This document shows, piece by piece, positions 11,806 through 31,909 of a DNA stretch of 64,000 nt (positions are counted from its first letter, which is position 1; each line of letters opens with the position of its first letter). Origin of the DNA: Lichenicola sp. GTDB lineage: Bacteria; Pseudomonadota; Alphaproteobacteria; Acetobacterales; Acetobacteraceae. A program made the translations under genes and the position numbers. Under the pieces are notes generated by a model, which was not told the DNA's origin, ran no database searches, and worked only from the letters and a program-made list of their open reading frames with translations. The DNA lies in the NCBI GenBank assembly GCA_965198655.1, contig OZ240668.1, forward strand, positions 3,196,767-3,260,766. Direction: 5' to 3'.

Positions 11806-12721
11806 GCGGCGCATGCGGATCGCCTGCCTCGGCGAGTGCATGGTGGAGCTGCGCGAGCGTCCGGACGGGCTGCTGAGCCGAAGCCATGGCGGCGACACGC
11901 TCAACACGGCGGTCTATCTCGCCCGGCTCGGCGCGTCGGTCGACTACGTCACCGCCCTCGGCGACGACCCGATGAGCGACGAGATGCTGGACGCGTGGCG
12001 CGCCGAAGGGATCGGCACCGGCCTGGTGCAACGCGTGGCCGGACACCTGCCCGGCCTCTACATCATCCAGACCAGCCCGGCCGGCGAGCGTCGCTTCACG
12101 TACTGGCGCGACAGCGCAGCCGCACGGCAGCTGTTCGACCATCTCGACCTGCGGGCGCTCGAAGCGGTCGACATGCTCTATCTGTCCGGCATCAGCCTCT
12201 CGATCTATGCCGAGCCGGCCAGGACGATCCTGTTCCAGGCGCTGGCGGCGCTGCGCGCGCGCGGTGGCCGGGTGGTGTTCGACACCAACTTCCGGCCGCG
12301 CGGCTGGCCGGACCGGATGCTGGCCCGTGCCTGCTACGCCCGCATGTTCGACCTGGCCGACATCGTGCTCGCCTCGGTCGAGGACCTGCGCCTGCTCTAC
12401 GACACCGAGGATGGCGCGGCGCTGCTCCGTCATGCCGATGACACCGAGATCGTGCTGAAGCTGGACGATCAGGCGTCGCGCATCGTGCATGACGGCACCC
12501 GGCTGCTGGTCCGGGCGGCTCCGGTGGCACGGGTGGTCGACACCACCGCCGCCGGCGACAGCTTCGCCGCCGCCTACCTGGCCGCCCGGCTGGGCGGTGC
12601 GTCGCCGGACGTGGCCGCCCTGGCCGGCCATGATCTCGCCGGGCTGGTGGTGGGGCATCCGGGCGCGATCATCCCCCGGGCGGCGATGGCCGGCGCGATA
12701 CCACCGCAGGGCGGCGCTTGA
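11792..12721 (+). CDS. kdgK: 2-dehydro-3-deoxygluconokinase (PfkB family)
   Basis: IACLGECMVEL, GGDTLNTAVYLARLG, YVTALGDDPMSDEMLDAWRAEGI, LPGLYIIQT..GERRFTYWR, VVDTTAAGDSFAAAYLAARL: close to the KdgK pattern. Alternative ATG at 11813. Confidence 0.85.
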   Translation: MSTTERRMRIACLGECMVELRERPDGLLSRSHGGDTLNTAVYLARLGASVDYVTALGDDPMSDEMLDAWRAEGIGTGLVQRVAGHLPGLYIIQTSPAGERRFTYWRDSAAARQLFDHLDLRALEAVDMLYLSGISLSIYAEPARTILFQALAALRARGGRVVFDTNFRPRGWPDRMLARACYARMFDLADIVLASVEDLRLLYDTEDGAALLRHADDTEIVLKLDDQASRIVHDGTRLLVRAAPVARVVDTTAAGDSFAAAYLAARLGGASPDVAALAGHDLAGLVVGHPGAIIPRAAMAGAIPPQGGA

Positions 12722-12743
12722 GGTCGCTTTCCTAGAAGCTTCA

Positions 12744-12862
12744 AAGGCCAGGGCTCTGCCCTGGACCCGCTGGGGCCGGAGGCCCCAGACCCCTTTTACT
12801 TCAAGAATCGGGTTTGAAGGGCTCTGCCCTTCATGGGGTCCAGGGGCAAAGCCCCTGGCCTT
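12744..12862 (+). repeat. composite nested-hairpin intergenic repeat (REP/MITE-like), copy A, short form
   Basis: AAGGCCAGGGCtctgCCCTGGACCC / CTGGGGCCggaGGCCCCAG / TTGAAGGGCtctGCCCTTCA / GGGTCCAGGGGCaaaGCCCCTGGCCTT. The termini are inverted repeats of each other. Confidence 0.85.
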
Positions 12863-12960
12863 CGCCGCCAACGGAAGCTTCCAAACGGACGCGCGCGCAG
12901 CATCCCCGCCAAGGCTGGATTTCGTTTCGCAGGCGGTGTTTTCCGATTGGGACAAGTATC

Positions 12961-14604
12961 ATGCGGTCTCCCCTGCGTGGAGATGGCATGTCGGACCGAC
13001 CCGGGTTGTTCTTGCGCTTCGGCGACGTGCGCGTTCCGGCCACGTTCCACGGCACGGCTAGTCTGATGGACCCCGCCGAGCCGTTGCCGCCCGCGCCACC
13101 CTGCGGTTACGACGACCTGCCCGGCACGTTCCACGCCGAGCTCGACATCACCTTCGACCTGCTCGTGGGCCTGGGGTACAGGCCGGTCGATCCGTCGCAC
13201 CCGGCCTATCCGCTCTACCTCGCCGCCGCCAGCGCTTCCCGCGAGCCGGCAGCGGCCTCGCCCGAGCCGGTGGGCGGCATCGATCGGTACTCCCCCTACG
13301 CCATCGTCTTTCCGTTCCAGACCATGGTGCCGGTCACCGCGGCCATGGCGCTGCGATACGGTCTGGTGGCGCCTGGCCGGGCGACCTCGGGACACGGACG
13401 CGATGCCGCTCAGCCGCAGCCCGTCCGGCGCAAGCCGGCACCGCCGCTCCATCATGCCAAGGCCGGCTCGAGCGGAGCCCCGCCGCCGCCGATCGGCGAC
13501 TTCGAGGCGTTTCTCGACTTCATGGGCAATCCGGAGCGGCATGGGGCTGGCGGCGCTGCCGACGCGGACCATCCGTCCGGCACCGCGCTGGCGGAGAAGG
13601 TCCCCGACGCAGCGTCGCCAACGCCCGCGACCGGGACCGGGACCGGGACCGGGACGCCCGCGCTCATGCTGCCGTCCCTGGCAACCGCATCGCCATCAAC
13701 CGCCATGCCGCCGGCAGCCGGCACGGCGCCACCTGCCGTGGGTATTGTTCCGGCCATGGGGAGAGTTGCCACCGCCGGCGCGGAAGCCGTCGAGGCAGCG
13801 GCCCTGTCCACCGGCGCGTCCGTGCTGGCCGCGCCGGCGGCCGCGGCGGTGGTCTTGCTGGCGCCGACCTCGACCGCCGCCGACGACACGCTCCTCGCGA
13901 AGGGCATCCCGATCGGGCCGCCCCTGCGTAAGCCGAGGGTCGATGTCGGCGATCTCGGGGCCGACCTGAACCTGGGCGCCAACGCCTTTTCGCCGGCGCC
14001 GTCGCCCGCATCGGGCGCGCCGCCGCTGGTGCCGCCCGAGACCCGTCCGATGCGGGAAAGCCTGCCGATCGCGACCGCCGACGGCTGGCGGGAAAGCCTG
14101 ACGCCTCCCGCACCTCTGCCGCCGCTGCCCGGCTTCGCAACGCCGGACATGGGCGGGCCGACCGAAGCGGAGGGGTTCACGCCGTCAGGCGGCGACGTGC
14201 CGATCATCCTGGAGGCCCGAAAGCCTGTCGGTCCGGACGTGTCGCGGGTCAACGGCCGTTATCCGCGCAACGCGGACTACGCGGGTCAGAACTATCCCGC
14301 AAGCAAGTTGCCACCTGCTCTTCAGGCCTTGTATCCGAACGGCGTTGACTTCACGCCCCAAGGCTTCCCGGATCTCAGACCATATGCCAAATTCGAAACG
14401 AAAGTTCCGGATCTGACCGGAGATCACAAAAAGGACGCTAGAAAGGCCAACGAAAACGTTGGTCTAGCTAGAACCCCTGAAGGTTACACCTGGCACCATG
14501 TCGAGGATGGAGTCACCATGCAGCTTGTTCCGAGCGACCTTCATGAGAGCATAGCTCATACGGGAGGCGCTGCGGCCAAGAAAGGGGAAAGGAATGGCCC
14601 TTGA
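12961..14604 (+). CDS. polymorphic toxin with C-terminal WHH-type HNH/EndoVII nuclease domain; N-terminal domain unassigned
   Basis: C-terminus ...GYTWHHVEDGVTMQLVPSDLHESIAHTGG carries the four-His WHH-family signature. A long Ala/Pro-rich linker sits in the middle. Start set at the first ATG after repeat copy A (12961; alternative 12988). The stop overlaps the immunity gene start (ATGGCCCTTGA). Confidence 0.75.
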   Translation: MRSPLRGDGMSDRPGLFLRFGDVRVPATFHGTASLMDPAEPLPPAPPCGYDDLPGTFHAELDITFDLLVGLGYRPVDPSHPAYPLYLAAASASREPAAASPEPVGGIDRYSPYAIVFPFQTMVPVTAAMALRYGLVAPGRATSGHGRDAAQPQPVRRKPAPPLHHAKAGSSGAPPPPIGDFEAFLDFMGNPERHGAGGAADADHPSGTALAEKVPDAASPTPATGTGTGTGTPALMLPSLATASPSTAMPPAAGTAPPAVGIVPAMGRVATAGAEAVEAAALSTGASVLAAPAAAAVVLLAPTSTAADDTLLAKGIPIGPPLRKPRVDVGDLGADLNLGANAFSPAPSPASGAPPLVPPETRPMRESLPIATADGWRESLTPPAPLPPLPGFATPDMGGPTEAEGFTPSGGDVPIILEARKPVGPDVSRVNGRYPRNADYAGQNYPASKLPPALQALYPNGVDFTPQGFPDLRPYAKFETKVPDLTGDHKKDARKANENVGLARTPEGYTWHHVEDGVTMQLVPSDLHESIAHTGGAAAKKGERNGP

Positions 14605-15142
14605 TATCGATCCTCCCGACAGGGTGCCGTCCGAGGCGGAGATACAGGATCTCGAACGTCAACTCGGCTTCCGCCTCCCTGACCGCTTCAGGGCCCTGCT
14701 TCCGCAACTGAACGGCGCCGTAGCAGAACCGAACACGATCAAGGGACCTGGGGACGAGGATTACGAGATCAACGTGTTCGAAAAGATCGAGGAGATCGCC
14801 CAAAGCAAGAACGCGATCGACAGCGAGAGGCCTACCGACCTCCTGCTGGTGCCGTTCGCCATGGATGGATGCGGCAACCATTTCTGCGTCGTTGCGGCCG
14901 ATGGCCCCGAGACGGGAGCGGTCTACTTCGAGGACCACGAGATCGCGGGAGACGAAGCGTTCTTGAAGATCGCCGCCAGCCTGGACGAGTTGATCGAGAA
15001 CGCCGAACCCGATGTCGACACTGATGAAGGCGGCAGCACGGGGATCGTTACCTACGCCGAGCCAGGCTTCCTGGAGTTCTGCAAGGAGCAGGAAAGGGAA
15101 AGGCAGAAGAAGAGACAGGAAAGGAAGGAGGGGAAGAAATAG
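14594..15142 (+). CDS. SUKH-1 (SMI1/KNR4) family immunity protein, copy 1
   Basis: SEAEIQDLERQLGFRLPDRFRALLPQLNG ... LLLVPFAMDGCGNHFCVV...VYFEDHE matches the SMI1/KNR4 pattern. It lies immediately 3' of the toxin with an 11-nt overlap. Lys/Glu/Arg-rich tail. Confidence 0.8.
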   Translation: MALDIDPPDRVPSEAEIQDLERQLGFRLPDRFRALLPQLNGAVAEPNTIKGPGDEDYEINVFEKIEEIAQSKNAIDSERPTDLLLVPFAMDGCGNHFCVVAADGPETGAVYFEDHEIAGDEAFLKIAASLDELIENAEPDVDTDEGGSTGIVTYAEPGFLEFCKEQERERQKKRQERKEGKK

Positions 15143-15183
15143 CCAGACACCCGTGGTTTGCCAGGTGTAGCCATTTGACCACC

Positions 15184-15300
15184 ACCTGGCACCATGTCGA
15201 GGATGGGGTCACCATGCAGCTTGTTCCTACCGACCTTCACGACAGCGTAAAGCATATTGGCGGCGTCGCGGTCAGGAAAGGAGAAAGGAATGGCCCTTGA
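15184..15300 (+). pseudogene. orphan toxin C-terminal tip (WHH nuclease fragment, no start codon)
   Basis: In-frame TWHHVEDGVTMQLVPTDLHDSVKHIGGVAVRKGERNGP*, 30/38 identical to the end of the full toxin. In-frame stops lie upstream, and homology begins exactly at the TWHH codons. Confidence 0.8.
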
Positions 15301-15837
15301 TATCGATCCTCCCGACAGGGTGCCGTCGGAAGCGGAGATACAGGATCTCGAACGTCAACTCGGCTTCCGCCTTCCCGACCGCTTCCGGGCCCTGCTTCCG
15401 CAACTGAACGGCGCCGAAGCAGAGCCGAACGTAATCAAGGGTGTTGGGGACGGGGACTACGCCATCAACAGGTTCGAGAAGATCGAGCACATCGTCGACA
15501 GCAAGAACGCGATCGACAGCGTGAGGCCTTCCGATCTCTTGCTGGTGCCGTTCGCCATGGATGGACTCGGCAACTGGTTCTGCGTCGTTGCGGCCGATGG
15601 TCCCGATAAGGGGCGGTCTACTTCGTGGACCACGAAATCGAGGGTGACGAGGCCTTCTTGAAGATTGCCGCCAGCCTGGATGAGCTGCTCGAGAATGCCG
15701 AACCCTACGTCGACACCGACGAGGGCGACAGCACGGGGATCATTACCTACGCCGAGCCAGGCTTCCTGGAGTTCTTCAAGGAGCAGGAAAGGGAAAAGGA
15801 AAGGAAGAGGAAGGAAGCGAAGAAAGATGGCCCTTGA
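15290..15837 (+). pseudogene. SUKH-1 immunity paralog, copy 2, interrupted by a -1 frameshift near 15612
   Basis: Frame 1 (15290-15661) matches copy 1 up to ...FCVVAADGPDKG, then reads nonsense. The next frame (from about 15625) resumes DHEIEGDEAFLKIAASLDELLENAEP.... Alignment to copy 1 shows one base missing (GGGAGCGGTC versus GGGGCGGTC). Confidence 0.7.
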
Positions 15838-16339
15838 TGTCGATCCTCCCGACCGGGTGCCGTCCGAAGCGGAGATACAGGATCTCGAACGCCAGCTCGG
15901 CTTCCGTCTCCCCGACCGCTTCAGGGCCCTGCTTCCGCGACTGAACGGCGCCGTAGCAGAACCGAACGTGATCAAGGGATCTGGAGACGAGGACTACGGG
16001 ATCAGCAGGTTCGAAGAGATCGAGCAAATCGCCCAAAGCAGGGAGGCGATGGACAGCCAGAACCCGTCCGATCTCTTGTTGGTGCCCTTCGCTGACAATG
16101 GATGCGGTGACTGGTTCTGCGTCGTTGCGGCCGATTGTCCCGAGAAGGAGGCGGTCTACTTCGTAGACCACGAATTTGAGGGAAACCACGCCTTTTCGAG
16201 GATCGCTGCCAACCTGGACGAGTTGTTCGAGAACGCCGAACCCGACATCGACACGGATGATGACGACAACAAGGCAACCGTTGTCTGGATCGAGCCAGGA
16301 ATTCTTGATCCACTAAAGGAGAAAGAAAAGAAGAACTGA
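15827..16339 (+). CDS. SUKH-1 (SMI1/KNR4) family immunity protein, copy 3
   Basis: MALDVDPPDRVPSEAEIQDLERQLGFRLPDRFRALLPRLNG...LLLVPFADNGCGDWFCVV...VYFVDHE. The same ATGGCCCTTGA junction joins it to the preceding gene. Confidence 0.8.
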   Translation: MALDVDPPDRVPSEAEIQDLERQLGFRLPDRFRALLPRLNGAVAEPNVIKGSGDEDYGISRFEEIEQIAQSREAMDSQNPSDLLLVPFADNGCGDWFCVVAADCPEKEAVYFVDHEFEGNHAFSRIAANLDELFENAEPDIDTDDDDNKATVVWIEPGILDPLKEKEKKN

Positions 16340-16802
16340 TCAAGCATCCACTGGACTGCGAGATTGACGAACGCCGTAAGGGCGGAGGGCTCACACCCGC
16401 GAACGAAGCCGGTGACCCGGGCGGGACTGGCGCCGCTCGGACGTGCCTGGCCTGGTTCAGGCCTGGCTTGACAAGAGACCACGACGAACAACACACGGCT
16501 GGCGATCCGCGACACGATCCCTGCGATGAAATTGCGCAGACCTGGGCGTCAGAAAACCGATCAGGCGGCTGCGGCGCGCATGAGACGGCGCCCATGTCCG
16601 GCGCGTCCTGCGCCCCGTCACCGCCAGGAACGCCGCCAGCCACCGGTCCGGACCATCCGGGCAGGCAGCCCGCGTCGCCATCGCCGCTCCCGGCTTCCCA
16701 TCCGCACGCCTGCCTCGGCTCGCTTTGTGCGCGGCGCCGGTGCTGCCGCCTGTACGTCGCGCCGACGTCGGGATCGTGCCATCCCGGCTCGCCGTCGGTC
16801 AG

Positions 16803-16962
16803 AAGGCCAGGGCTCCGCCCATCGATCTGCTTCGCAACGCGGTCCGCTGGAACCGTCACGCGACGCGTGCCCACGCAGGACGGCCCCAGACTCCTTTCCT
16901 TCAAGAATCGGGTTTGAAGGGCTCCGCCCTTCATGGGGTCCAGGGGCAAGGCCCCTGGCCTT
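16803..16962 (+). repeat. composite nested-hairpin repeat, copy B, long form
   Basis: Same termini and core as copy A, plus the internal CCCATCGATCTGCTTCGCA...CCGCTGG module shared with copies C and F. Confidence 0.8.
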
Positions 16963-17010
16963 CCCGACCCAAGGCCACGAGCCGGATCAACGAGGGGCCG
17001 ACCGCCCGCC

Positions 17011-17646
17011 TCACGCCTCGTCCGTGTCCTTCGGCAGCAGCAGCACGAACGGCAGCATCGCGGCCGGGACGAGAAGCGGCAGGACCAGGCCGTGTTGGCA
17101 CAGGACGCCGAGGGCCGCCCCCGTCACGTACGCCGCCCACAGCGACGGCACGATGACGAGCACGGCCCGGTCGCCATCCTCCCCCTTCCGCCCTGCGATC
17201 CGCCTGGCGACCGCCTGGGCGAGCTTCTGCAGGTCGCCCGACACGAAGCTGGTGTTGATGCTTTGCCCGCCGAAGCGGGTGAAGGCGGCGTTCTGCCCGG
17301 CCAGGGCGGCGCCGAGAACGAGGACGTTGATCGGTTTCGGCAGGAACGCGGCCACGAGGATGACGAGGCTGGCGGCCAGGACGGCCAGCGCGCTGCCCCG
17401 CCTCGAACCCCGCTCCGGGCGAAGCAGCAGCCGTGCTGCCAGCGAGCCGATGAAGAAGCATAGGACCGCGGTCGCCTTCTGTTCGGCGCCGTGCCAGTGC
17501 CCCTCGGCCAGGGCCACGCCGAGCAGGGCGGTGTTCCCGGTCATCTGTGCGGCGAAGATGCCGGTCTGGAGCCAGCCGAGGCCATCGGACAGGCCGGCGA
17601 TCAGGGCGAGCCAGGAGGCACGAAGGGCAGGATGACGCAGCAGCAC
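17011..17646 (-). CDS. YoaK/DUF1275 family membrane protein
   Basis: GLSDGLGWLQTGIFAAQMTGNTALLG signature (MTGN) plus multiple TM helices; 211 aa. Confidence 0.7.
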   Translation of the reverse strand: MLLRHPALRASWLALIAGLSDGLGWLQTGIFAAQMTGNTALLGVALAEGHWHGAEQKATAVLCFFIGSLAARLLLRPERGSRRGSALAVLAASLVILVAAFLPKPINVLVLGAALAGQNAAFTRFGGQSINTSFVSGDLQKLAQAVARRIAGRKGEDGDRAVLVIVPSLWAAYVTGAALGVLCQHGLVLPLLVPAAMLPFVLLLPKDTDEA

Positions 17647-22077: not shown

Positions 22078-22207
22078 ACCAGCGGCGCACCATGCCGTTG
22101 GCAGAAACGCACGTCGGATCGCCACGCCGCCTGGCTCAAGCTGAACCAGGCGACTTGACGGCCTTCATGCGCGACGTCAAAGGAAGCGCCCCGCTCCGGA
22201 GAACTCG

Positions 22208-24388
22208 ATGCGCCCGAGATCGCGGTCCAGCCTTGCCATCCCGTTCCTTGTCGCAGGCCTCCTCGCCAACGCGTCGGTGCTGGCCGGCGACCGGGGTGCG
22301 CCGGCAACAACCGTGGCGCCGGTGACCGACACCTACCACGGCGTCACGGTCACCGATCCCTATCGTTGGCTGGAGAACGGCGCCGACCCCAAGGTCGAGG
22401 CCTGGTCCGCGTCGCAGAACGCCCGGACCCGGACCTATCTGGACCGCCTTCCCGAGCGTCGCGCCCTGTTCGACCGCATCCTGTCCCTGACCGACGCGGC
22501 GTCGCCGGCCTACCACGACCTGCACGAAGCGGGCGGCCGCCTGTTCGCGCTCGCGGTCCAGCCGCCGAAGCAGCAGCCGCTGGTGGTCGACATGGACCCG
22601 TCCGGCAACCCCGCGACGGCGCGCGCCGTGGTCGACCCGAACGCGATCGATCCCGGCGGCCAGACGGAAATCGACTGGTACGTGCCGTCGCCGGACGGCA
22701 AGCTCGTCGCCGCCTCGCTGTCGCGCAACGGCAGCGAGGACGGCACGGTGCACGTCTTCGACGTCGCGACCGGACGCGACCTCGGCGAGGCGGTTCCCCG
22801 CGCACAGTATCCGACCGCGGGCGGCAGCCTCGCCTGGAAGTCCGACTCCTCCGGATTCTGGTACACGCGCTATCCCGGCGTCGAGCGTCCGGAGGCGGAC
22901 CGGAACTTCTACCAGCAGGTCTACTTCCACGCGCTGCACGCCGATCCCGTCACCGACAGCTACGTCGCCGGGAAGGACTTCCCGCGGATCGCCGAGATCG
23001 TCCTGGACGGCAGCCAGAACCGGAACGGCGTGCTGATGTCGGTCGCCAACGGCGATGGCGGCGAGTTCGCGCAATACGTCATCGCCCAGGCGAGCGGGCG
23101 CGTCCGCAAGGTCAGCGACTTCGCCGACAAGGTCGTCGCCGCGTCGATCGGACCCGACGACGTGCTCTACCTCGTGTCCCGCAAGGACGCACCGCGCGGC
23201 CAGTTGCTCGGTCTTCCCCTGTCGGACCCCGTCCTGGCGCACGCCAAGGTCCTGGTGAAGCAGGGCGACGGCGTGATCGAGGGTGGCGGCGAGTTCGGCG
23301 GCGAGGCGGTGGCGGTGACGCCGGGCTCGCTCTACCTGCGCGAGCTGGTGGGCGGTCCGTCGCGTGTGTCGATCTATGGCCACGACGGCACGCCGCAGGG
23401 CGTGGTGCCGCTGCCGCCGGTGACCGCCGTCAGCGAGGTCGAGCCGGCGGGAGACGGACACGTCCTGGTCGCGTTCGACAGCTATCTCAAGCCGCACCAG
23501 GTGGTGCGCTACGACGAGACGGCGAAGCACGTCGAGAACACGACGCTCGCCTCCACCAGCCCCGTGGACTTCGGCGGCATCACGGTGGAGCGCGCGTTCA
23601 CGGTGTCCCGGGACGGCACCCGTGTCCCGTTCAACATCGTCATGAACAAGGAGACCAGGCTCGACGGCCGCAACCCGCTCCTGCTCTACGGCTACGGCGG
23701 CTACAACATCTCGGACGAGCCGAGATTTCTCGGCGCCGGCTTCCGCGCCTGGCTCGCCGCGGGCGGCATCTACGTGGACGCGAACCTGCGCGGCGGCGGC
23801 GAGTATGGCGAGACCTGGCACCAGCAGGGCGCGCTGCTGAACAAGCAGCACGTGTTCGACGACTTCATCGCGGTCGCGCGCCAGCTCGTGGCGCAGCGCT
23901 ACACGTCGCCGCAGCACCTGGCGATCCTGGGCGGCAGCAACGGCGGGCTGCTGATGGGGGCGGCCCTGACGCAGGCGCCGCAGATGTTCAAGGCGGTGGT
24001 GTCCCTGGTCGGCATCTACGACATGATGCGCATCGAGCTCGACGCGAACGGCGCCTTCAACACGACCGAGTTCGGCACGGTGAAGGACCCGGCGCAGTTC
24101 CACGCCATGCTGGCCTATTCCCCCTACCAGGCAGTGCGCGACGGGGTGAGATATCCGGCGGTGTTCATGGCCACCGGAACCCATGACGGACGGGTCAACC
24201 CGGCCCAGTCACGAAAGATGATTGCCCGGCTGCAAGCGGCCACCGCGTCGGACCAGTCGATCTACCTGTCGATCAGCGACAAGGCCGGACACGGCATCGG
24301 CAGCTCCGTGGCGGTCCGGGTGGGCCAGCAGGCGGACTACATGGCCTTCCTGTTCGACCAGCTTGGCATGAGCCTGCCGAAGTCCTGA
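22208..24388 (+). CDS. prolyl oligopeptidase family (S9A) serine peptidase, secreted
   Basis: Signal peptide, DPYRWLE N-terminal motif, beta-propeller region, GGSNGGLLMG nucleophile elbow, C-terminal D...GHG catalytic residues. Confidence 0.85.
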   Translation: MRPRSRSSLAIPFLVAGLLANASVLAGDRGAPATTVAPVTDTYHGVTVTDPYRWLENGADPKVEAWSASQNARTRTYLDRLPERRALFDRILSLTDAASPAYHDLHEAGGRLFALAVQPPKQQPLVVDMDPSGNPATARAVVDPNAIDPGGQTEIDWYVPSPDGKLVAASLSRNGSEDGTVHVFDVATGRDLGEAVPRAQYPTAGGSLAWKSDSSGFWYTRYPGVERPEADRNFYQQVYFHALHADPVTDSYVAGKDFPRIAEIVLDGSQNRNGVLMSVANGDGGEFAQYVIAQASGRVRKVSDFADKVVAASIGPDDVLYLVSRKDAPRGQLLGLPLSDPVLAHAKVLVKQGDGVIEGGGEFGGEAVAVTPGSLYLRELVGGPSRVSIYGHDGTPQGVVPLPPVTAVSEVEPAGDGHVLVAFDSYLKPHQVVRYDETAKHVENTTLASTSPVDFGGITVERAFTVSRDGTRVPFNIVMNKETRLDGRNPLLLYGYGGYNISDEPRFLGAGFRAWLAAGGIYVDANLRGGGEYGETWHQQGALLNKQHVFDDFIAVARQLVAQRYTSPQHLAILGGSNGGLLMGAALTQAPQMFKAVVSLVGIYDMMRIELDANGAFNTTEFGTVKDPAQFHAMLAYSPYQAVRDGVRYPAVFMATGTHDGRVNPAQSRKMIARLQAATASDQSIYLSISDKAGHGIGSSVAVRVGQQADYMAFLFDQLGMSLPKS

Positions 24389-24464
24389 CAGCCAGTCGTG
24401 CCACCGATCCCGGTCGCCGCCTCAGAGTTGGCGACGATCCGGGCTCGAAACGACGGAATGCCGA

Positions 24465-24800
24465 TCAAGGAAAAACGTAGCCGAAGCGGACATATCCAGG
24501 GAACACCGGATATGGATAGTATCCCGCGTAATACGGATAGGATCCATAGAACGGGTAGGCCGCGTAATAGGGATAGGCCGCATAGTACGGGTAGCCGGAA
24601 TAGACGACGGTGGGATGGGCTGTCGCGACAAGCTGATTGCTGGGCGTGCGTGTCTGGGTCGTCGCCAACTGCTGCGTGCGGGGAGTGGATGCAGGTGCGG
24701 ATGCCACCGGCAATGCCACCAGTGGCGGCGGCGGTGGCTCGACGACGCATCCGGTCAGCATGGCCAACAGGACTGAACTTCCGATTCGATGTGCGCGCAT
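24465..24800 (-). CDS. lipoprotein with Tyr/Pro-rich repeat C-terminus
   Basis: Lipobox LLAMLTGC after MRAHRIGSSV, a proline tract, then YSGYPYYAAYPYYAAYPFYGSYPYYAGYYPYPVFPGY. Confidence 0.55.
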   Translation of the reverse strand: MRAHRIGSSVLLAMLTGCVVEPPPPPLVALPVASAPASTPRTQQLATTQTRTPSNQLVATAHPTVVYSGYPYYAAYPYYAAYPFYGSYPYYAGYYPYPVFPGYVRFGYVFP

Positions 24801-24970
24801 GTCATCCACCCCGACGATCCGCAGAAGAATTGGAAGCCGCTCGGCGTCCTGCAATCGGCGTCGTCGGACGGAGGATTACCTTTGCGTGAGCCGACGCGGC
24901 ACGAAGATCCTTCGATACAAGACGAGACGATTTGAGTACATCGACGGCCATGACGTTGGAGGAAGCAAGC

Positions 24971-25672
24971 ATGTCCGGCCTTGGCCCGTTGACCGTCGCC
25001 GCGGCGCTGTGGGTCGGCGTGCATGTCGGCATCGCCGGCACCTCCGTGCGTCGGGCGGTGGCCGGGCAGATCGGCGAGGCCGGGTTCCGCGGCGTGTTCT
25101 CGCTGCTTTCCGTCGCCGCGATCACCGCCCTGGTGGTGACCTACAAGCGCGCCCGCCTGGCCGGCAGCGAACAGCTCTGGACAGCGCCGTACTGGCTGGG
25201 CTGGATCCTCGTCCTGCTGATGGCGCCGGCCTTCGTGCTGTTGGCAGGCTCGGTCGTGCGGCCGAACCCGACCGAGGTCGGCGGCGAGCGGGCGCTCGGG
25301 CAGGAGCCGCGCGGGCTCGCGCGCGTCACCCGCCACCCGATGCTCTGGTCGTTCGCGACCTGGTCGGCGGTCCACGTGGTCGGCAACGGCGACCTGGTGT
25401 CGCTGCTGTTCTTCGGCGCCTTCGGGGTCACCGCCCTAGCCGGCATGCCCTCGATCGACGCCAAGCTGGCGAAGCGCGATCCGCAGAACTGGGCGCGGCT
25501 GCGCGACGCGACCTCGATCCTGCCGTTCGGCGCCATCATGGCCGGGCGCAACCGGCTGGCGCTGCGGGAGATCGGCTGGATCGCGCCGGCGGCCGGACTG
25601 GCGCTCTGGGCGCTGCTGCTGGTGATCCACCCCCGGCTGTTCGGGGTGTCGCCGCTGCCAGGGCAAGGCTGA
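24971..25672 (+). CDS. NnrU family membrane protein
   Basis: GGAGGAAGC Shine-Dalgarno before ATG 24971. LWVGVHVGIAGTSVR...TRHPMLWSFATWSAVH pattern of NnrU. Confidence 0.7.
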   Translation: MSGLGPLTVAAALWVGVHVGIAGTSVRRAVAGQIGEAGFRGVFSLLSVAAITALVVTYKRARLAGSEQLWTAPYWLGWILVLLMAPAFVLLAGSVVRPNPTEVGGERALGQEPRGLARVTRHPMLWSFATWSAVHVVGNGDLVSLLFFGAFGVTALAGMPSIDAKLAKRDPQNWARLRDATSILPFGAIMAGRNRLALREIGWIAPAAGLALWALLLVIHPRLFGVSPLPGQG

Positions 25673-25906
25673 GCGCGCCGGCTCCCGTTCGAACGGCGAC
25701 GTGCGAGCGGGACGCTGATGGCAAGGACGCCGCACCGGCGCGAGGTCGAGGTGCGGCTCCACCAGGGCGCCTTGGGCACGCGGAGCGCGGCGCGGAAGGG
25801 CAACGCTCGCCTGACGTGTCGCGACCAACGCTGACGCCGGATCGGTTTCCTTCTATGCCGGACGCCGCCGGAGCGCCCGGTCGCGGCGCAGCAGGAGAGC
25901 GAACCG

Positions 25907-27673
25907 TTGGCCGATCGTTGGAACAGCCTGCCCGCGATGCTGCTGGGCCTCGCCGCCCGACACGGCGACCGGCCGATGCTGCGGCACTGGGGCGCAGGCG
26001 GCTGGCAGCGGACCAGCTGGCGCGACTTCGCCACCGCGGTCGCCGCGGCGGCGTCCGGCCTGCGGGCGCATGGCATCGGTGCCGGCGACCGGGTGCTGCT
26101 GGTCAGCGAGAACCGTCCGGAGCTCCCGATCGCGGAAACGGCGCTGCTGTCGCTCGGTGCTGTCGTGGTGCCGACCTACGTCACCAACACCGTGCGGGAC
26201 GACGCCCACATCCTGCGCGATAGCGGGGCCACGGCTGCGATCGTGTCCAGCGCCGCCCTGGCGACGCGGGTGGGCGAGGCGGCGGGTCCGGGCGCCTTGG
26301 ACCTGCTGGTGTCGATGGAGCCGGCCGACGGGGCGCTGCCGTGGCAGGGGCTGCTCGGGGGTCCCGACGATCCGGCCCGGCTCGCGGCCGACGTCGCGGG
26401 GCTCCGGCCGGGCGACCTCGCCTGCCTGATCTACACCTCCGGCACCGGCGGTGCGCCCAGGGGGGTGATGCTGCCGCATCGCTCCATGCTGGCCAACCAG
26501 CGGGCCATCGCCGAGGTGTTGACGCCGATGCGCCTCGACGGCGAGCGCTACCTGTCGTTCCTGCCGTTGTCGCATTCCTACGAGCACACGGTCGGCAACT
26601 ACATCCTGCCCTCGCTCGGGATGGAGGTGGTGTACAGCCGCGGCGCCGACCGGCTGGCCGCCGAGTTCCGGGAGATCGAGCCGGCCCTGGTCACCGCCGT
26701 GCCGCGCCTGTTCGAGGTGCTGCGCGGCCGCATCACCGCCGAGGTGGCGCGCCAGCCGCAGTGGAAGCGGGCCCTGTTCGCCCGCACGCTCCGGCTCGGC
26801 CTGCAACGGCTCGACGGGCCGCCGCTCACGTTGGCGCAGCGCATCGAGGACCTGGCCCTGGACCGGCTGGTGCGTCAAACGGTGCGTCAGCGCTTCGGCA
26901 GCCGGCTGCAGGCGATCGTGTCCGGCGGCGCGCGGCTCGACCCGGAGCTGTCCGGCTTCTTCCTGGCCCTCGGCGTGCCGCTGCTGCAGGGCTACGGCCA
27001 GACCGAGGCGGGGCCGGTGGTCAGCGTGAACCTGCCCTGGGACAACGACCGCCGCAGCGTCGGCCGGCCGCTGCCGGGGGTGGAGGCGCGCATCGCCGGC
27101 ACTGGCGAGCTGCTGCTGCGCGGCGAGCTGGTGATGGACGGCTACTGGAACGACGCGGCCGGGACGGCGATCCGGCACGATCCCGATACCGACCCGCAAG
27201 GCGAACCTTGGCTGCACACCGGCGACGTGGCGCGGATCGAGCACGGACGGATCGTGATCGAGGACCGGCTGCGCGACGTCATCAAGCTGCTGAACGGCGA
27301 GATGGTCAGCCCGGCCAAGCTGGAAACCCTGCTGATGGGCGAGGATGACATCGTCCAGGCCGTGGTCGCGGGCGAAGGCCGGCACCACGTGGTGGCCCTG
27401 CTGGTGCCGGCCGAGGACGCCGATCCGGCGGCGGCGGTCCGGCGGGTGAACGCGAAGCTGGCCCGGCCGGAGCAGATCCGGCGCTGGGGCGTCATGCCCG
27501 CCGCCACGATCGAGAACGGGCTGCTGACGGCGTCCATGAAGCTCCGCCGCCGCCTGGTGCTGCAGCGACATGCCGCCGAGGTCGACGCGTTGTACGGGTC
27601 GGCGGCTAAGGCCAGGGGCCTTGCCCCTGGACCCCATGAAGGGCGAAGCCCTTCAAACCCGATTCTTAAGTAA
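25907..27673 (+). CDS. AMP-dependent acyl-CoA synthetase/ligase (long-chain-fatty-acid--CoA ligase-like)
   Basis: LIYTSGTGGAPRGVMLPH AMP-binding motif, GYGQTEAGP, TGDVARIE. TTG start at 25907. The last 22 codons lie inside repeat copy C. Confidence 0.8.
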   Translation: MADRWNSLPAMLLGLAARHGDRPMLRHWGAGGWQRTSWRDFATAVAAAASGLRAHGIGAGDRVLLVSENRPELPIAETALLSLGAVVVPTYVTNTVRDDAHILRDSGATAAIVSSAALATRVGEAAGPGALDLLVSMEPADGALPWQGLLGGPDDPARLAADVAGLRPGDLACLIYTSGTGGAPRGVMLPHRSMLANQRAIAEVLTPMRLDGERYLSFLPLSHSYEHTVGNYILPSLGMEVVYSRGADRLAAEFREIEPALVTAVPRLFEVLRGRITAEVARQPQWKRALFARTLRLGLQRLDGPPLTLAQRIEDLALDRLVRQTVRQRFGSRLQAIVSGGARLDPELSGFFLALGVPLLQGYGQTEAGPVVSVNLPWDNDRRSVGRPLPGVEARIAGTGELLLRGELVMDGYWNDAAGTAIRHDPDTDPQGEPWLHTGDVARIEHGRIVIEDRLRDVIKLLNGEMVSPAKLETLLMGEDDIVQAVVAGEGRHHVVALLVPAEDADPAAAVRRVNAKLARPEQIRRWGVMPAATIENGLLTASMKLRRRLVLQRHAAEVDALYGSAAKARGLAPGPHEGRSPSNPILK

Positions 27674-27743
27674 AAGGGGTCTGGGGCCTCCGGCCCCAGC
27701 GGACCGAGCTGCGAAGCAGATCGGTGGGCAGCGCCCTGGACTT
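27608..27743 (-). repeat. composite nested-hairpin repeat, copy C, long form, inverted orientation
   Basis: Reverse complement of the copy F architecture, including the GAGCTGCGAAGCAGATCGGTGGG module. Confidence 0.8.
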
Positions 27744-27831
27744 GCTTCCTGGCCAGGCTGTCAAGACCCCGCCATGCAGCGACTCCGGCAACGATCTGGC
27801 GTCCGACGCCACCGGAACCTATAGTGAACGG

Positions 27832-29973
27832 ATGACGCAGCAGATCGTCATCACCGAGAAGACCAGCCAGGCGAAGGACGTCCGCGCCGCGGTCGGCAAC
27901 CGCTACGGCCCGATCCTGCCGGCGGAGGGTCACCTGTTCGACCTGCTGGAGCCGGAGCAGGTGGAACCGTCCTGGTCGCGCTGGCGCCCGGTGCTGCTTC
28001 GACCGGATGGGCTATACGGCACCAGGCCGGCCGCCGGCGGCAACAAGGCGGCCAAGCTCAAGGCGATCCGCGAGGCGCTGCGCGGCGCGCGCTGCGTCTG
28101 GCTCGCCACCGATTGCGACCGCGAAGGACAACTGATCGGCCAGGAGATCCTGGAGCACTACTGCTACGGCGGCGAGGTGCGCCGGGTGATGTTCACCGCC
28201 CAGGACCCGCAGACGATCCGCGACGCGTTCTCCGCGGCAAAGCCGAACCGGGACTACCTGCCGCTCTACCAGGCGGCGGTCGCGCGGCGGCAGGCGGACC
28301 AGATCTATAACCTGTCGCTGACCCGCACCGCCACCGTGACCCTGTCGCGCGGCGGCCGTGGCGTGATCGGGGTCGGCCGGGTGAAGACGCCGACGCTGGC
28401 GATCGTCTGCCGGCGCGAGGAGGAGATACGCAGCTTCGTGCCGCAGCGCTATCTCGAGGTGGTGGCGACAGCGACCGCGGAAGGCGGACGGTTCCGGATG
28501 CGGCACGCGCCGAAGGATCGCATTGTCGACCGGCGCGTCGCCGAGGCGATCGCCGCTTTGGCGGACGGCGATCGCGGGCCGCTCGCGGTCCGGGTGGAGG
28601 AGAAGCGGCAGGCCCCGCCCCGTCTGCACGACCTGCCGTCGTTGCAGAAGCTGTGTGCCTCACGCTTCGGCTGGACCGCCGCCCACACGCTGGAGGTGGC
28701 GCAGGAGCTGTACGACGGGCAGGGCAAGAAGGTCATCACCTACCCGCGCGCGGAAACCCGCTGCCTGCCGGAAGCCCTGATCGGCGACGTGCCGCACGTC
28801 ATCGCCGGGCTGCGAGCCGGGCAGAGCTTCGCCGCGATCCCGGTGCCCGACCCGCCGGTGATCCGACGCGGCGCTGGCGGCTGCTTCAACGACAAGGGCC
28901 TTGCGGGCGCCAGCCACCACGCGGTGATCCCGAACCGCAACACCATCGACACCCTGCGCGCGGTGTGGCCGCGGCTCGGCGCGGACGAGCGACGCCTGTT
29001 CGACGTGATCGCCCGCTCCTACCTGGCGGCGATGATGCCGGACTTCCGCTACCGCCAGACCACGGCGACGCGGGACGTGGCCGGCCACGCCTTCCGCGCC
29101 GTCGGCCGTCAGCCGATCGCGCTCGGCTGGCGCGCCGCCTATCCCGACTGGCAGCCGGCGGAGGAGACCGGCGAGGACGCGCAGCTGCTGCCCGCCTTGC
29201 GCGACGGCGCGGTCGCGGTCCTGTCCGAGCCTGCGGTCGAGGACAAGGAAACCCGCCCGCCGCCGCGCTACAACGAGGGCACGCTGATCGACGCGATGCA
29301 GAACGCCTGGCGCTTCGTCGCCGACGAGGCGCTGCAGGTCCGGCTGAAGCAGGCCAAGGGCATCGGCACCCCGGCGACGCGTGCCGAGATCCTGCGCGGG
29401 CTCAAGGCGCAGGACCTGCTGGTGGTGGAGAACAAGGCGATCGTGCCGACCGAGCGGGGGCTGGCGCTGCATGCCGTGCTGCGCGAGGCCGACCCGGCTT
29501 TGGTCGATCCGGGCGTCACCGCGCAGCTGGAACGGCTGCTGGACGGAGTACTGGTCGGCGAGACCGCGATGATGGGTGCGATCGACGCGGTCTGCGCGGA
29601 GGCGGAGCGGATCATCGGCCGGCTCACCGCGCACGGCACCGCCGGTCCGGTCGCTCCCCTGCCCGCTGCACGCGCGGCAACCGGCGCCTCGTCGAAGCCG
29701 GGCAAGGCACCCGGGCGGAGCCGGACGTCGCGCAGCGCGACGCCGTCCAAGCGGGTTGAGAAGCCCGGTGCGAAACCCGTTAGACGGACCAGAGCGGCGA
29801 AGGCCGATCCGGCGCGTCGCCAGCCGGACGCGGCATCCGGCGACACTCCCCTGCGCATCCCCTACGGCAACAAGGAGACGGCGCAGAAGCTCGGCGCGCG
29901 CTACCGCGACGGCGGCTGGTACGCGCCACCCGGCATCGACCTGCAGCGGTTCCGCGCGCATGGCTGGCTCTAG
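27832..29973 (+). CDS. topB: DNA topoisomerase III
   Basis: MTQQIVITEKTSQAKD Toprim N-terminus, DCDREGQLIG, YPRAETRCLP active-site Tyr region. Basic C-terminal tail ending in an LRIPYGNKETAQKLGARY..GWY domain. Confidence 0.85.
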   Translation: MTQQIVITEKTSQAKDVRAAVGNRYGPILPAEGHLFDLLEPEQVEPSWSRWRPVLLRPDGLYGTRPAAGGNKAAKLKAIREALRGARCVWLATDCDREGQLIGQEILEHYCYGGEVRRVMFTAQDPQTIRDAFSAAKPNRDYLPLYQAAVARRQADQIYNLSLTRTATVTLSRGGRGVIGVGRVKTPTLAIVCRREEEIRSFVPQRYLEVVATATAEGGRFRMRHAPKDRIVDRRVAEAIAALADGDRGPLAVRVEEKRQAPPRLHDLPSLQKLCASRFGWTAAHTLEVAQELYDGQGKKVITYPRAETRCLPEALIGDVPHVIAGLRAGQSFAAIPVPDPPVIRRGAGGCFNDKGLAGASHHAVIPNRNTIDTLRAVWPRLGADERRLFDVIARSYLAAMMPDFRYRQTTATRDVAGHAFRAVGRQPIALGWRAAYPDWQPAEETGEDAQLLPALRDGAVAVLSEPAVEDKETRPPPRYNEGTLIDAMQNAWRFVADEALQVRLKQAKGIGTPATRAEILRGLKAQDLLVVENKAIVPTERGLALHAVLREADPALVDPGVTAQLERLLDGVLVGETAMMGAIDAVCAEAERIIGRLTAHGTAGPVAPLPAARAATGASSKPGKAPGRSRTSRSATPSKRVEKPGAKPVRRTRAAKADPARRQPDAASGDTPLRIPYGNKETAQKLGARYRDGGWYAPPGIDLQRFRAHGWL

Positions 29974-31084
29974 CGTCGCCGCCGCCGGGACCGGGGGCGA
30001 CACGATCGCGTCGGCTGTGAGCCACGCGCACCGGCGCATCATCCACGTGGACATGGATGCGTTCTACGCCTCGGTCGAGCAGCGCGACGACCCGGCGCTG
30101 CGCGGGCGTCCGGTGGCGGTAGGCGGCGCGCGCGCCCGCGGCGTGGTGGCGGCGGCGAGCTACGAGGCCAGGCGCTACGGCGTGCGCTCGGCGATGCCCT
30201 CGGTCACCGCGCGCCGGCTGTGCCCGGAGCTGGTGTTCGTGCCGCCCCGCTTCGACACCTACAAGGCGGTGTCGCAGCAGGTCCGGGGCATCTTCGAGGC
30301 CTACACCGAGCTGATCCAGCCGCTGTCGCTGGACGAGGCCTATCTCGACGTGACCCGGCCGCTGCGCGACCTGGGCTCCGCCACCGCGATCGCCGCCGAG
30401 ATCCGCGCCCGGATCCGCGCGGAGACCGGACTGACTGCCTCGGCCGGCGTGTCCTACAACAAGTTCCTGGCCAAGCTCGCCTCCGACCAGCGCAAGCCGG
30501 ATGGGCTGTTCGTCATCACCCCGGCGCGGGGCCCGGGCTTCGTGGAGGCGCTGGCGGTGGACCGGTTCCATGGCGTGGGCCCGGTGACGGCGGCGAAGAT
30601 GCGCGGGCTCGGCATCCAGACCGGGCTCGACCTGCGCGGCTGGACGCTGGAGCGCCTGGTGCGGCATTTCGGCAAGGCCGGACCGCACTACCACGCCATC
30701 GCCCGCGGCGAGGACGACCGTCCGGTGGTGACGGACCGGCCGCGCAAGTCGCTGGGCTCCGAGCACACCTTTGCCGCCGACGTGTCGGACTGGGACGGCG
30801 CCCGCGCCGCACTGGAACCCGCGATCGACAAGGTCTGGGCCGGCTACCAGAAGGCCGGGCGGCCGGCGCGCACGGTGACGCTGAAGGTGAAGTTCTCCGA
30901 CTTCCGCATCGTCACCCGGGCGGCCTCGAGCGTGCAGCCCTTCGCCACCCGGACCGCGCTGGCGGAAGCAGCGATCCTGCTGCTGCGCGGGCTGTTCCCG
31001 TTTGAGCGCAGCATCCGGCTGCTGGGGGTCAGCGTCTCGCGCTTCGAGGCGGCGCCCGCCGCGACGCCCGACCTGTTCGGGTGA
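29960..31084 (+). CDS. dinB: DNA polymerase IV
   Basis: RRIIHVDMDAFYASVEQRDDPALRGRPVAVGG, SLDEAYLDV, HGVGPVTAAKM. ATG at 29960 overlaps the topB stop by 14 nt. A later GTG start is possible. Confidence 0.85.
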   Translation: MAGSSVAAAGTGGDTIASAVSHAHRRIIHVDMDAFYASVEQRDDPALRGRPVAVGGARARGVVAAASYEARRYGVRSAMPSVTARRLCPELVFVPPRFDTYKAVSQQVRGIFEAYTELIQPLSLDEAYLDVTRPLRDLGSATAIAAEIRARIRAETGLTASAGVSYNKFLAKLASDQRKPDGLFVITPARGPGFVEALAVDRFHGVGPVTAAKMRGLGIQTGLDLRGWTLERLVRHFGKAGPHYHAIARGEDDRPVVTDRPRKSLGSEHTFAADVSDWDGARAALEPAIDKVWAGYQKAGRPARTVTLKVKFSDFRIVTRAASSVQPFATRTALAEAAILLLRGLFPFERSIRLLGVSVSRFEAAPAATPDLFG

Positions 31085-31252
31085 TCCCCTCACGGGTTCC
31101 GTGAGAAGCCCGGACGTGATATGGACGATGATCACCATAGCGCCGTGGCACCTGGTCCCTTGTCGTCACGTTCCTCGCGTGACGATGGGGAATTCGGTCG
31201 AGCGCACGGTGCCGCGCCCCGGATGCCGGGCGGAGCAGGAGATGGCAGGCCC

Positions 31253-31909
31253 ATGCTGACCAAGACGGCGACAGAGATCCAGGATGACGACCAAGTGGAC
31301 GCCCACCCGATAGCCGTCGACGCGTCGGTCGACGAGGCGGTGTCCACGGAAGCCGAGGACGAGGACGCGTCGGCCGACAGCAGACCGCGTCCCAACCCCG
31401 CACGCAAGCCCCGCGACGACGAGCCGTTCGCGGAAGGCGACCACGTCGTCTACCCGACGCACGGGGTCGGCAAGGTCGAGCGCATCGCCACCGAGGAGAT
31501 CGCCGGCCACAAGCTGGAGCTGATCCACATCACCTTCGAGGAGAACCGGATGACGCTGCGCGTCCCGGTGGCGAAGGCAAAGAGTGCCGGCCTGCGCAAG
31601 CTGGCGACGCGCAAGCTGTTCGACGAGGCGCTGGCGATCCTGAAGGGACGGGCGCGGATCAAGCGCACCATGTGGTCCAGGCGGGCACAGGAATACGAGG
31701 CCAAGATCAACTCGGGCGACCCGCTGGCGATCGCCGAGGTGGTGCGCGATCTGCACCGCAACGCCGGCCAGCCGGACCAGAGCTTCTCCGAGCGGCAGAT
31801 CTACGAGGCGGCGATGGACCGCCTCGCCGCCGAGCTCGGCGCGCTGGAGCGGATCGACAAGAACGCGGCGGCAGTGAAGCTCGCGGAGTATCTTAAGACC
31901 ATCGCCTAG
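31253..31909 (+). CDS. carD: CarD/CdnL family transcriptional regulator with acidic N-terminal extension
   Basis: FAEGDHVVYPTHGVGKVERI...RMTLRVPV...MWSRRAQEYEAKINSGDP...VVRDLHR matches CarD_CdnL. Confidence 0.85.
   Translation: MLTKTATEIQDDDQVDAHPIAVDASVDEAVSTEAEDEDASADSRPRPNPARKPRDDEPFAEGDHVVYPTHGVGKVERIATEEIAGHKLELIHITFEENRMTLRVPVAKAKSAGLRKLATRKLFDEALAILKGRARIKRTMWSRRAQEYEAKINSGDPLAIAEVVRDLHRNAGQPDQSFSERQIYEAAMDRLAAELGALERIDKNAAAVKLAEYLKTIA

Follow-up and report, generated by a model that had tools for sequence, protein, structure and literature searches.

A Polymorphic Toxin Gene of Lichenicola sp. Combines a Lineage-Specific N-Terminal Module with an Exchangeable WHH Nuclease/SUKH-1 Immunity Cassette

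Overview

A 64,000-nucleotide (nt) stretch of the Lichenicola sp. genome (assembly GCA_965198655.1, contig OZ240668.1, positions 3,196,767 to 3,260,766; the whole stretch is called the window, and coordinates count from its first letter) carries an intact polymorphic toxin at 12988–14604. The segment 12961–14280, singled out in a first-pass annotation of the same DNA, is the non-toxic front of this gene. The locus has four layers: an Acetobacteraceae module, a variable linker, a WHH nuclease and three tandem SUKH-1 immunity genes. We hold this architecture, jointly with the swapping of toxin/immunity cassettes behind the module, with high confidence. For the module we infer a delivery or adaptor role. 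In our best reading, the toxin would be an orphan polymorphic cargo effector of a type VI secretion system (T6SS) whose loading domain is peculiar to this lineage and comparable to MIX, FIX, RIX, PIX and WHIX. Taken as a whole, with architecture, cassette swapping and T6SS loading together, we put the probability that this is the best explanation at about 0.55.

Reading Frame and Layout of the Toxin Gene

The toxin is a single uninterrupted open reading frame (ORF) on the + strand, in a frame free of stops from 12814 to the stop codon at 14602–14604. Its start is the ATG at 12988, with GGAGA 5 nt upstream, where the called starts of the homologues (MSD...) also align. The coding region is therefore 12988–14604 (+) and the protein 538 amino acids (aa). 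The first-pass annotation had started the protein at 12961. That ATG is in frame in the window only; in a nine-locus alignment, the eight other loci have a 1-nt gap. The eight homologous loci, the MSD... starts and the GGAGA all favor 12988, and with this start the non-toxin part, earlier put at about 440 aa, comes to ~417–431 aa. The coding signature, in which G+C at third codon positions (GC3) exceeds that at first positions (GC1) and this in turn exceeds that at second positions (GC2), runs across residues 1–431 and is interrupted only at ~13660–13810, in the Ala/Pro linker. Since the signature is kept, the N-terminal part is translated in the toxin frame. The parts of the toxin are as follows.

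12988–13392, + strand: domain A, the conserved N-terminal domain (residues 1–135), from alignments
13480–13536, + strand: motif B (residues 165–183, PPPPIGDFEAFLDFMGNPE), after the basic Pro-rich spacer VRRKPAPP
13537–14238, + strand: variable type-1 linker (residues 184–417), from composition and hydropathy
14239–14604, + strand: WHH/HNH-EndoVII nuclease domain with the stop codon (residues 418–538), from Pfam

The N-Terminal Module

The globular-looking start of about 130 aa in the first-pass annotation corresponds to domain A. Its signature blocks are GxVRIPATFxGT, LDIxFxLLxGLGFxPVDPSHPAYPLYL, PFETT and LRxGLVAPG, and the invariant residues are still present at 37% identity. Motif B has the consensus PPxxDFxAFLDFLGDPE and is kept in the distant members P0012, P0014, P0009 and P0019; at the related locus L011 it reads ITDFASFMHVLGEPDE. 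Domain A, the basic/Pro spacer and motif B make up a conserved module of ~190 aa. Between the window and the paralogous locus L001, DNA similarity sets in at 12920, 68 nt ahead of the ATG, and stops at 13566, shortly after motif B, so the shared unit is the leader plus ~190 codons. The N-terminal module of the first-pass annotation thus narrows to these ~190 aa, the 230-aa Ala/Pro linker being itself variable.

No known family accounts for the module. In a Pfam search of the whole toxin, matches were confined to the extreme C-terminus, and residues 1–431, as one piece and as each half, matched zero families at E ≤ 10. Zero matches to the N-terminal part were found in NCBIfam at E ≤ 10 and in PHROGs at E ≤ 1, and the family profile run against all PDB sequences gave a single match with E = 0.068. 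Pattern checks found no MIX central motif, prePAAR, lipobox, Tat motif, VENN, DPxGL or YD repeats. An AlphaFold2 model from a diverse 11-sequence alignment was of moderate quality (predicted local distance difference test, pLDDT, 68; predicted template modeling score, pTM, 0.51); an earlier model from a 7-sequence alignment had pLDDT 41 and was unusable. The better model gives domain A two long strands (18–27 and 106–115) and three short helices, and with it Foldseek returned no match in PDB or BFVD. A by-eye likeness of GDVRVPATF to a TonB box was set aside, as that segment is modeled as a core beta-strand (residues 18–27). The first-pass annotation saw no recognizable trafficking domain in the N-terminus and named a match to one as the outcome that would count against it; Pfam, NCBIfam, PHROGs, PDB sequences, Foldseek and the motif patterns all failed to give such a match. 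On these alignments and searches, domain A plus motif B is an undescribed module restricted to Acetobacteraceae.

The GC Break

Composition divides the gene sharply. In 300-nt intervals, GC is 0.71–0.76 across 13050–14250, 0.55–0.61 across 14250–16500 and ~0.70 beyond. In the toxin frame, GC3 drops at codon 432 from 0.85 to 0.53, and the maximum-likelihood change point of GC3 falls at nt 14284, ~45 nt into the WHH/HNH domain. Domain A has a GC3 of 0.87, like host genes, and the linker 0.82–0.87. The toxin segment, at 0.557, lies under all of the 1042 same-size segments (115 codons each) drawn from 27 confident genes of the window, which have a mean of 0.925 and a minimum of 0.635. The codon GC of module and linker is that of the host lineage, and that of the nuclease and immunity genes is not. 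A GC drop at ~14280, continuing through toxin and immunity genes, had been seen by eye in the first-pass annotation, which counted on a discontinuity surviving computation; the computed change point sits almost on that position, and the break is sharp. The junction at ~nt 14240–14284 is where the WHH/SUKH cassette recombined onto the module. The further idea that a low-GC cassette was grafted fits the WHH cassettes and those of an unknown toxin described below (GC3 0.56–0.63) and does not extend to every cassette of the family, with the lysozyme, AHH and hydrolase cassettes at 0.73–0.83 having a weak signature or none.

The WHH Nuclease and Its Immunity Genes

The C-terminus matches Pfam WHH (PF14414, 1.4e-16) and Colicin-DNase (PF12639, 6e-13). 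The domain belongs to the WHH nucleases in the HNH/EndoVII superfamily and has a GC3 of 0.53–0.56. Residues 407–533 are 57% identical to a Paraburkholderia plasmid toxin in a locus of the contact-dependent growth inhibition (CDI) type, where an SMI1/KNR4 gene comes next and filamentous-haemagglutinin and ShlB genes lie alongside. A Burkholderia haemagglutinin-repeat protein ends in a 55%-identical copy of the WHH domain. From the pairing of WHH and SUKH in the Paraburkholderia locus it follows that the cassette is shared with CDI systems of the type V secretion system (T5SS). Downstream of the toxin in the window are three immunity genes.

14594–15142, + strand: immunity gene 1, SUKH-1 (SMI1/KNR4), Pfam SMI1_KNR4 4.7e-19, overlapping the toxin 3′ end by 11 nt
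15290–15837, + strand: immunity gene 2, a frameshifted SUKH-1 paralogue, Pfam 1.4e-14 for its 5′ part
15827–16339, + strand: immunity gene 3, SUKH-1 paralogue, Pfam SMI1_KNR4 6.5e-19

Immunity gene 1 is 29% identical to the SMI1/KNR4 gene after the Paraburkholderia toxin. Gene 3, another unit of the tandem repeat, shares 84% identity with copy 1. Gene 2 is split into ORFs at 15257–15661 and 15625–15837, and since the repeat spacing is 696 versus 695 nt, the split is due to a 1-nt indel. It is either a decaying spare copy or a sequencing error.

Exchange of C-Termini behind the Module

At least five C-termini are found on the same module, each with its own immunity gene or candidate.

WHH nuclease, in the window, L003 and L016: SUKH-1 immunity
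Phage_lysozyme (5e-16), in L001 and L002: candidate immunity proteins are small, with signal-peptide-like N-termini (by eye)
Toxin without a library match, in L004 and L015: candidate immunity protein is small, hydrophobic and apparently membrane-spanning (by eye)
AHH nuclease (24 bits, above cutoff), in L011: candidate immunity protein of 246 aa
Weak Hydrolase_2-like match (below cutoff; SleB-like), in L014: candidate immunity protein of 202 aa

The exchanges can be followed between close relatives. L002 and L004 stay colinear, with 90% identity, as far as the opening codons of the toxin, beyond which they diverge. L001 and L015 come from two strains in one sample, occupy the same topA/AMP-ligase locus and are colinear through module and linker; in L015 a 1.17-kb cassette of unknown toxin and immunity gene comes next, and behind it remain the final ~50 nt of the lysozyme gene together with its immunity gene. 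L015 is a textbook case of C-terminal displacement. The earlier suggestion of a toxin/immunity cassette grafted onto the module is borne out by this new cassette in front of the lysozyme remnant, and so is the modular shuffling that the first-pass annotation looked for, since the module is joined to different C-termini from one homologue to the next. The locus thus has the alternative C-termini, the downstream immunity gene changing with the toxin and the traces of cassette recombination that mark polymorphic toxins; an N-terminus that specifies a known export route, another such mark, was not found in the profile, PDB-sequence, Foldseek and motif searches listed above. Taken together, the closely related strains document C-terminal displacement, and the gain or loss of whole cassettes at repeats like repetitive extragenic palindromes (REP-like repeats; see below), as a natural series of unusual clarity.

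The unknown toxin domain is ~155 aa long (LLVDDHGNPV...NIAIGLY...), has no Pfam match and has a GC of 0.47–0.51. It occupies 9291–9764 of L004 and 11401–11880 of L015. The gene after it (9771–10232 in L004, 11884–12357 in L015) encodes a hydrophobic protein, also of ~155 aa, that appears by eye to be a multi-pass membrane protein and is presumably its immunity protein. Judged from its sequence, this toxin may represent an uncharacterized family.

The Linker

The linker is low-complexity, ~230 aa long and rich in Ala, Pro, Gly and Thr; residues 191–425 are 20% Ala, 17% Pro and 11% Gly. It is probably disordered. It contains motif C (DLGADLNLGANAF, 13951–13989) and one hydrophobic stretch at 13801–13869 (residues 272–294), where the Kyte–Doolittle mean over 19 residues is 1.9. 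Composition and hydropathy here agree with the first-pass annotation, which described an Ala/Pro-rich linker with one hydrophobic stretch. At least two versions of the linker exist. Type 1, in the window, L003 and L016, carries the hydrophobic stretch and accompanies the WHH nuclease; type 2, in the lysozyme and unknown-toxin variants L001, L002, L004 and L015, is without it. A short DLNxLG(L)GxxF/L motif is common to both. One might speculate that the hydrophobic segment could help nuclease toxins across the target inner membrane. A glycine-zipper-like segment is present at a comparable place in P0012, which is toxin-less.

Distribution, Selection and Decay of the Family

The family is small. 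An HMMER profile run exhaustively against 1.84 billion representatives gave 14 members, all at E ≤ 1e-10; a word-indexed search of 5.8 billion clusters gave 8 proteins, and a broader profile, against 5.8e9 proteins, again gave 14 clusters. Every named source is in Acetobacteraceae, being either Endosaccharibacter trunci KSS8 or an uncultured metagenome-assembled genome (MAG). The module has no match on 72,556 plasmids or 50,697 phages. One metagenome match at 32% identity (L008) was discarded as spurious because it lies inside a 2500-aa nonribosomal peptide synthetase.

Between the orthologous loci L002 and L004, domain A evolves under purifying selection, with a ratio of nonsynonymous to synonymous divergence (Ka/Ks) of 0.27 at a Ks of 0.18, the same as the Ks of the adjacent nusG. 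The toxin domain likewise has a Ka/Ks of 0.27 between the window and L003. Values for the L002/L004 linker and for domain A of L001/L015 were discarded, their coordinates being out of frame.

Many of the relatives are broken. There are frameshifts in L001, L002, L014 and L015, with lesion sites that differ, and in L011, from E. trunci KSS8, TGG is replaced by TAG at a conserved Trp. L012 is a 144-aa module-only gene and L009 a 394-aa toxin-less gene, and L016 is also among the interrupted or truncated loci. The breaks are 1-nt indels outside homopolymers, the one TGG→TAG change and, in an assembly of 2x coverage, multiple breaks. Probably they are part low-coverage long-read error and part real decay. 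Programmed frameshifting was considered and ruled out, given that the breaks are at varied positions and of varied kinds.

These breaks bear on two ways in which the gene could be misread. One is that the long ORF is an artefact, in which a small N-terminal protein and a toxin are two genes apparently fused through the scarcity of stops at high GC or through sequencing error. In its favor, the homologues at L001, L002, L011, L014 and L015 are called as two products, and the protein databases are without any full-length family member, which is explained by most homologues being interrupted or truncated. We find the artefact scarcely credible. The window, L003 and L004 are three independent loci with one uninterrupted frame, and the coding signature is kept in frame except at the linker interval noted above. 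The splits elsewhere differ in site and kind (1-nt indels, and one nonsense codon for a conserved Trp), which makes a fusion unlikely, and the short gene calls end in out-of-frame tails in which a frame-shifted motif B is plain to see. The other is that the family is mostly decaying or non-functional, with the N-terminus the leftover of an old gene and the toxin/immunity pair alone mattering, for example as an addiction module. Most related loci are indeed broken (L001, L002, L014, L015, L011, L012 and L009), and the second immunity gene of the window is frameshifted. Against it, the genes of the window, L003 and L004 are intact over 538–594 codons, the invariant residues persist at 37% identity with a Ka/Ks of 0.27 between orthologues, and the 5′ leader is conserved. 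Some of the frameshifts, found in long-read assemblies at 2x and 10x, may be errors of sequencing, and new cassettes are still being grafted precisely onto the module. We consider general decay very unlikely.

The Delivery Route

The most likely function of the module, to which we give even odds, is T6SS loading. Domain A and motif B would be a loading or delivery domain that attaches the toxin non-covalently to a T6SS spike component, like the MIX, FIX, RIX, PIX and WHIX domains in orphan cargo effectors. The nuclease would be fired into neighboring cells, and the SUKH proteins would guard the producer and its kin. This function is rated most likely because there are three circumstantial links and fitting published precedents. 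The WHH cassette of L003, which is orthologous and 84% identical in nucleotides to that of the window, lies 218 nt from a PP2C phosphatase gene and tssM, in convergent orientation (IcmF Pfam domains, 1e-83). P0008, a member of the module family, and P0026, a TssM 87% identical to that of L003, are each on a contig of exactly 4,218,377 bp, so one genome has module and TssM together. Among the best 120 TssM matches, Lichenicola is present, at 69–70% identity, and E. trunci KSS8 is absent; neither module gene of E. trunci KSS8 is intact, a frameshift disrupting one and TGG→TAG at the conserved Trp the other.

As to precedents, PIX is both necessary and sufficient for T6SS secretion, binds a VgrG and is found in 1571 genomes (Carobbi et al., 10.1101/2023.07.16.549128). 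PIX effectors are orphans confined to one order, Enterobacterales, with HNH, colicin-like and transglycosylase C-termini; their immunity gene is no more than 25 bp away, and none of them lies beside T6SS genes (10.1101/2023.07.16.549128). RIX, a 55-residue arginine-rich motif of Vibrionaceae, defines orphan, family-restricted effectors that, like PIX effectors, end in HNH, colicin-like or glycosidase domains with an immunity gene after them, and it occurs in toxin-less secreted tethers as well (PMC10435454).

Several observations weigh against T6SS loading. The 64-kb window contains no T6SS, adaptor, VgrG, Hcp, PAAR or other secretion gene; the 29 other ORFs scanned are all metabolic or housekeeping genes except for a CcdAB pair. 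Only one of ~10 related loci is T6SS-adjacent, and the co-occurrence with T6SS amounts to one genome, together with one absence among the best 120 TssM matches. The adaptor families DUF4123, DUF1795 and DUF2169 are not among the called neighbors of any locus. The module has no sequence or fold likeness to any known T6SS marker, where FIX, RIX, PIX and WHIX were not compared by profile. Between the window (12988–13392) and L003 (698–1100), domain A has a Ka/Ks of ~1.1, a noisy value inflated by GC bias; this counts against loading because a domain fitting a conserved spike partner is expected to evolve more slowly, and it possibly reflects either fast allelic divergence or an artefact of extreme GC3. 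In most of the homologous toxin genes a break or truncation falls between module and toxin, and some may be non-functional. Finally, a long disordered linker with short conserved motifs has the look of a colicin-type bacteriocin as well.

Such a bacteriocin would be released like a colicin, pyocin or pesticin and imported without a contact-dependent apparatus, with domain A binding a receptor, linker motifs B and C threading the envelope and recruiting the import machinery, and the nuclease or muramidase being imported. Much about the family could be read this way. The C-terminus also matches Colicin-DNase, and there is a muramidase of the phage-lysozyme type whose candidate immunity proteins have signal-peptide-like N-termini by eye; pesticin carries a lysozyme-type muramidase. 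Short linear motifs are conserved within a long linker of low complexity, about nine of ten loci are orphans with no adjacent secretion genes, and domain A is fast between alleles (Ka/Ks ~1.1, window versus L003), as receptor-binding domains often are. We still regard a released bacteriocin as unlikely. Tandem SUKH-1 arrays are typical of contact-dependent polymorphic toxin loci and unlike colicin Im proteins; no lysis-like ORF was noted at the locus, and the 72,556 plasmids and 50,697 phages gave no match. No TonB or TolB box was recognized by eye, GDVRVPATF being modeled as a core beta-strand. There is no convincing SOS box either, the sole nearby GTTC-N7-GTTC match being intracoding, and one cassette (L003) adjoins tssM. 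The module could instead direct export or targeting by a further route, perhaps an undescribed one, distinct from both T6SS and passive release, or it could be a secreted adaptor or tether; in the adaptor variant, the stand-alone L012 (144 aa) and L009 (394 aa) would be adaptors and not remnants. Stand-alone toxin-less module genes do exist, the module is unlike any known marker, and RIX is known both in effectors and in secreted tethers (PMC10435454). We give this, too, a small chance. No candidate apparatus gene is conserved beside any locus, no alternative system has positive evidence behind it, and L012 is likely a deletion derivative of the syntenic L014, because its flanks are colinear with L014 and 1.4 kb is missing. 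A broader proposal, which we think rather unlikely, is that the module fronts a new alphaproteobacterial class of toxins that enter targets by themselves or through an undescribed apparatus, with the linker motifs DFxAFLDFLGDP and DLNxLGLGxAF engaging envelope proteins of the target and the stand-alone forms being secreted adaptors.

SOS regulation was examined as a candidate and rejected. The GTTC-N7-GTTC match at 13033–13047 is intracoding and encodes VPATF, and its first half-site is gone, by eye, in homologues reading RIPATF. The window has 41 such matches against 35.6 expected, which is no enrichment.

Comparison with Known Systems

By analogy, the module would fall in the N-terminal delivery-domain class of polymorphic toxins, with an undescribed domain. 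In organization it is close to PIX. Both are lineage-restricted N-terminal domains before diverse toxins (HNH and colicin-like nucleases, cell-wall glycosidases), in orphan genes away from T6SS genes with an immunity gene directly downstream. They differ in having no detectable sequence similarity, and the role of the module is proposed from sequence, whereas that of PIX is shown by experiment. The family has ~14 clusters where PIX is in 1571 genomes, and its Ala/Pro linker is much longer. As with RIX (PMC10435454), there are toxin-less module genes here (L009, L012). No homology to RIX, MIX, FIX or WHIX (PMC10435454; PMC12135965) was detected, with FIX, RIX and WHIX not compared by profile; the MIX central motif hRxGhhYhh is absent from the toxin.

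The swappable C-terminal toxin and linked immunity gene are shared with CdiA-CT/CdiI and Rhs-CT (Zhang et al. 2012, PMC3482391), as are the displaced C-terminus/immunity remnants downstream (L015) and the tandem immunity arrays. The WHH domain itself is the same as in CDI-type loci of Burkholderiales, at 55–57% identity. Unlike CdiA and Rhs, the toxin has no Sec signal, two-partner secretion (TPS) domain, filamentous-haemagglutinin repeats, VENN, Rhs/YD repeats, PAAR or DPxGL motif; there is no CdiB/ShlB/FhaC partner gene in the window, as there would be in CDI, and the toxin is only 538 aa. With nuclease colicins, S-type pyocins and pesticin it shares the C-terminal HNH-family DNase, the immunity gene overlapping the toxin 3′ end, disordered N-terminal stretches with short motifs and, in the module family, a lysozyme-type variant. 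It departs from colicins and pyocins in having SUKH-1 immunity and not the Im family, no lysis gene noted and no plasmid copy among 72,556.

The discovery of T6SS and other interbacterial toxins rests on N-terminal markers, and MIX, FIX, RIX, PIX and WHIX each exposed new toxins and loading mechanisms. For a small clade of Acetobacteraceae associated with plants, lichens and soil, the module provides a marker that is not yet annotated, and it already leads to one toxin domain outside all libraries (the L004/L015 type). Its very narrow distribution limits generality, and the architecture is conventional.

Surroundings of the Locus

Upstream of the toxin gene is a conserved leader, and REP-like repeats lie on both sides of the locus.

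12912–12987, + strand: conserved 5′ leader of the toxin gene, with a −10-like hexamer (TATCAT/TATGAT) and a GGAGA Shine–Dalgarno sequence
12744–12874, + strand: REP-like palindromic repeat, upstream copy (direct repeat families D3 and D6 pair with 16803–16974)
16803–16974, + strand: REP-like repeat, downstream copy, paired with 12744–12874

The leader, ~75 nt, is kept across nine loci in unrelated genomic contexts. Its sequence is TTTCGTTTCGCA...TTGGGACA.GTATGATGCGG...GGAGATGGC, including the TATGAT-like hexamer. DNA similarity to L001, L003, L006 and L007 starts at 12901–12920. From its conservation, the leader may be a shared promoter or operator; Rfam gave nothing in 12500–17200.

The REP-like repeats have a 45-nt core, GAAGGGCTCYGCCCTTCATGGGGTCCAGGGGCAARGCCCCTGGCC, inside repeats of ~100–170 nt. 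The window has six copies, against zero expected: 12816–12860, 16916–16960, 27610–27654(−), 31920–31964(−), 39295–39339(−) and 59729–59773. Because the element is so dispersed, its flanking of the locus is weak evidence for island ends. The empty site at 27610–27654 is better evidence of an island. The flanks of L001 are 93–94% identical to 22145–27623 and 27708–35141 of the window, and where L001 has its 3.9-kb cassette, the window has a mere REP-like copy at 27610–27654, which is thus an empty site relative to L001 and L015. This comparison suggests gain or loss of cassettes at REP-like repeats. The first-pass annotation had called the delivery module resident, and that remains apt for its host-like GC3; the whole gene, though, is a presence/absence island beside REP-like repeats.

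The neighbors vary. In the window they are an MFS transporter and a PfkB kinase upstream and DUF1275 and DUF2252 proteins downstream, and related loci follow nusG, rho, topA, gyrB, lpxC or leuB. One MAG has two copies of the module, both of which break its contigs.

Elsewhere in the window, 51100–52850 is a second low-GC patch, with GC down to 0.52. It holds two small ORFs without a family match and, on the minus strand, the CcdA/CcdB pair, with CcdB at 52015–52365 (1.5e-25) and CcdA at 52365–52832 (5e-23).

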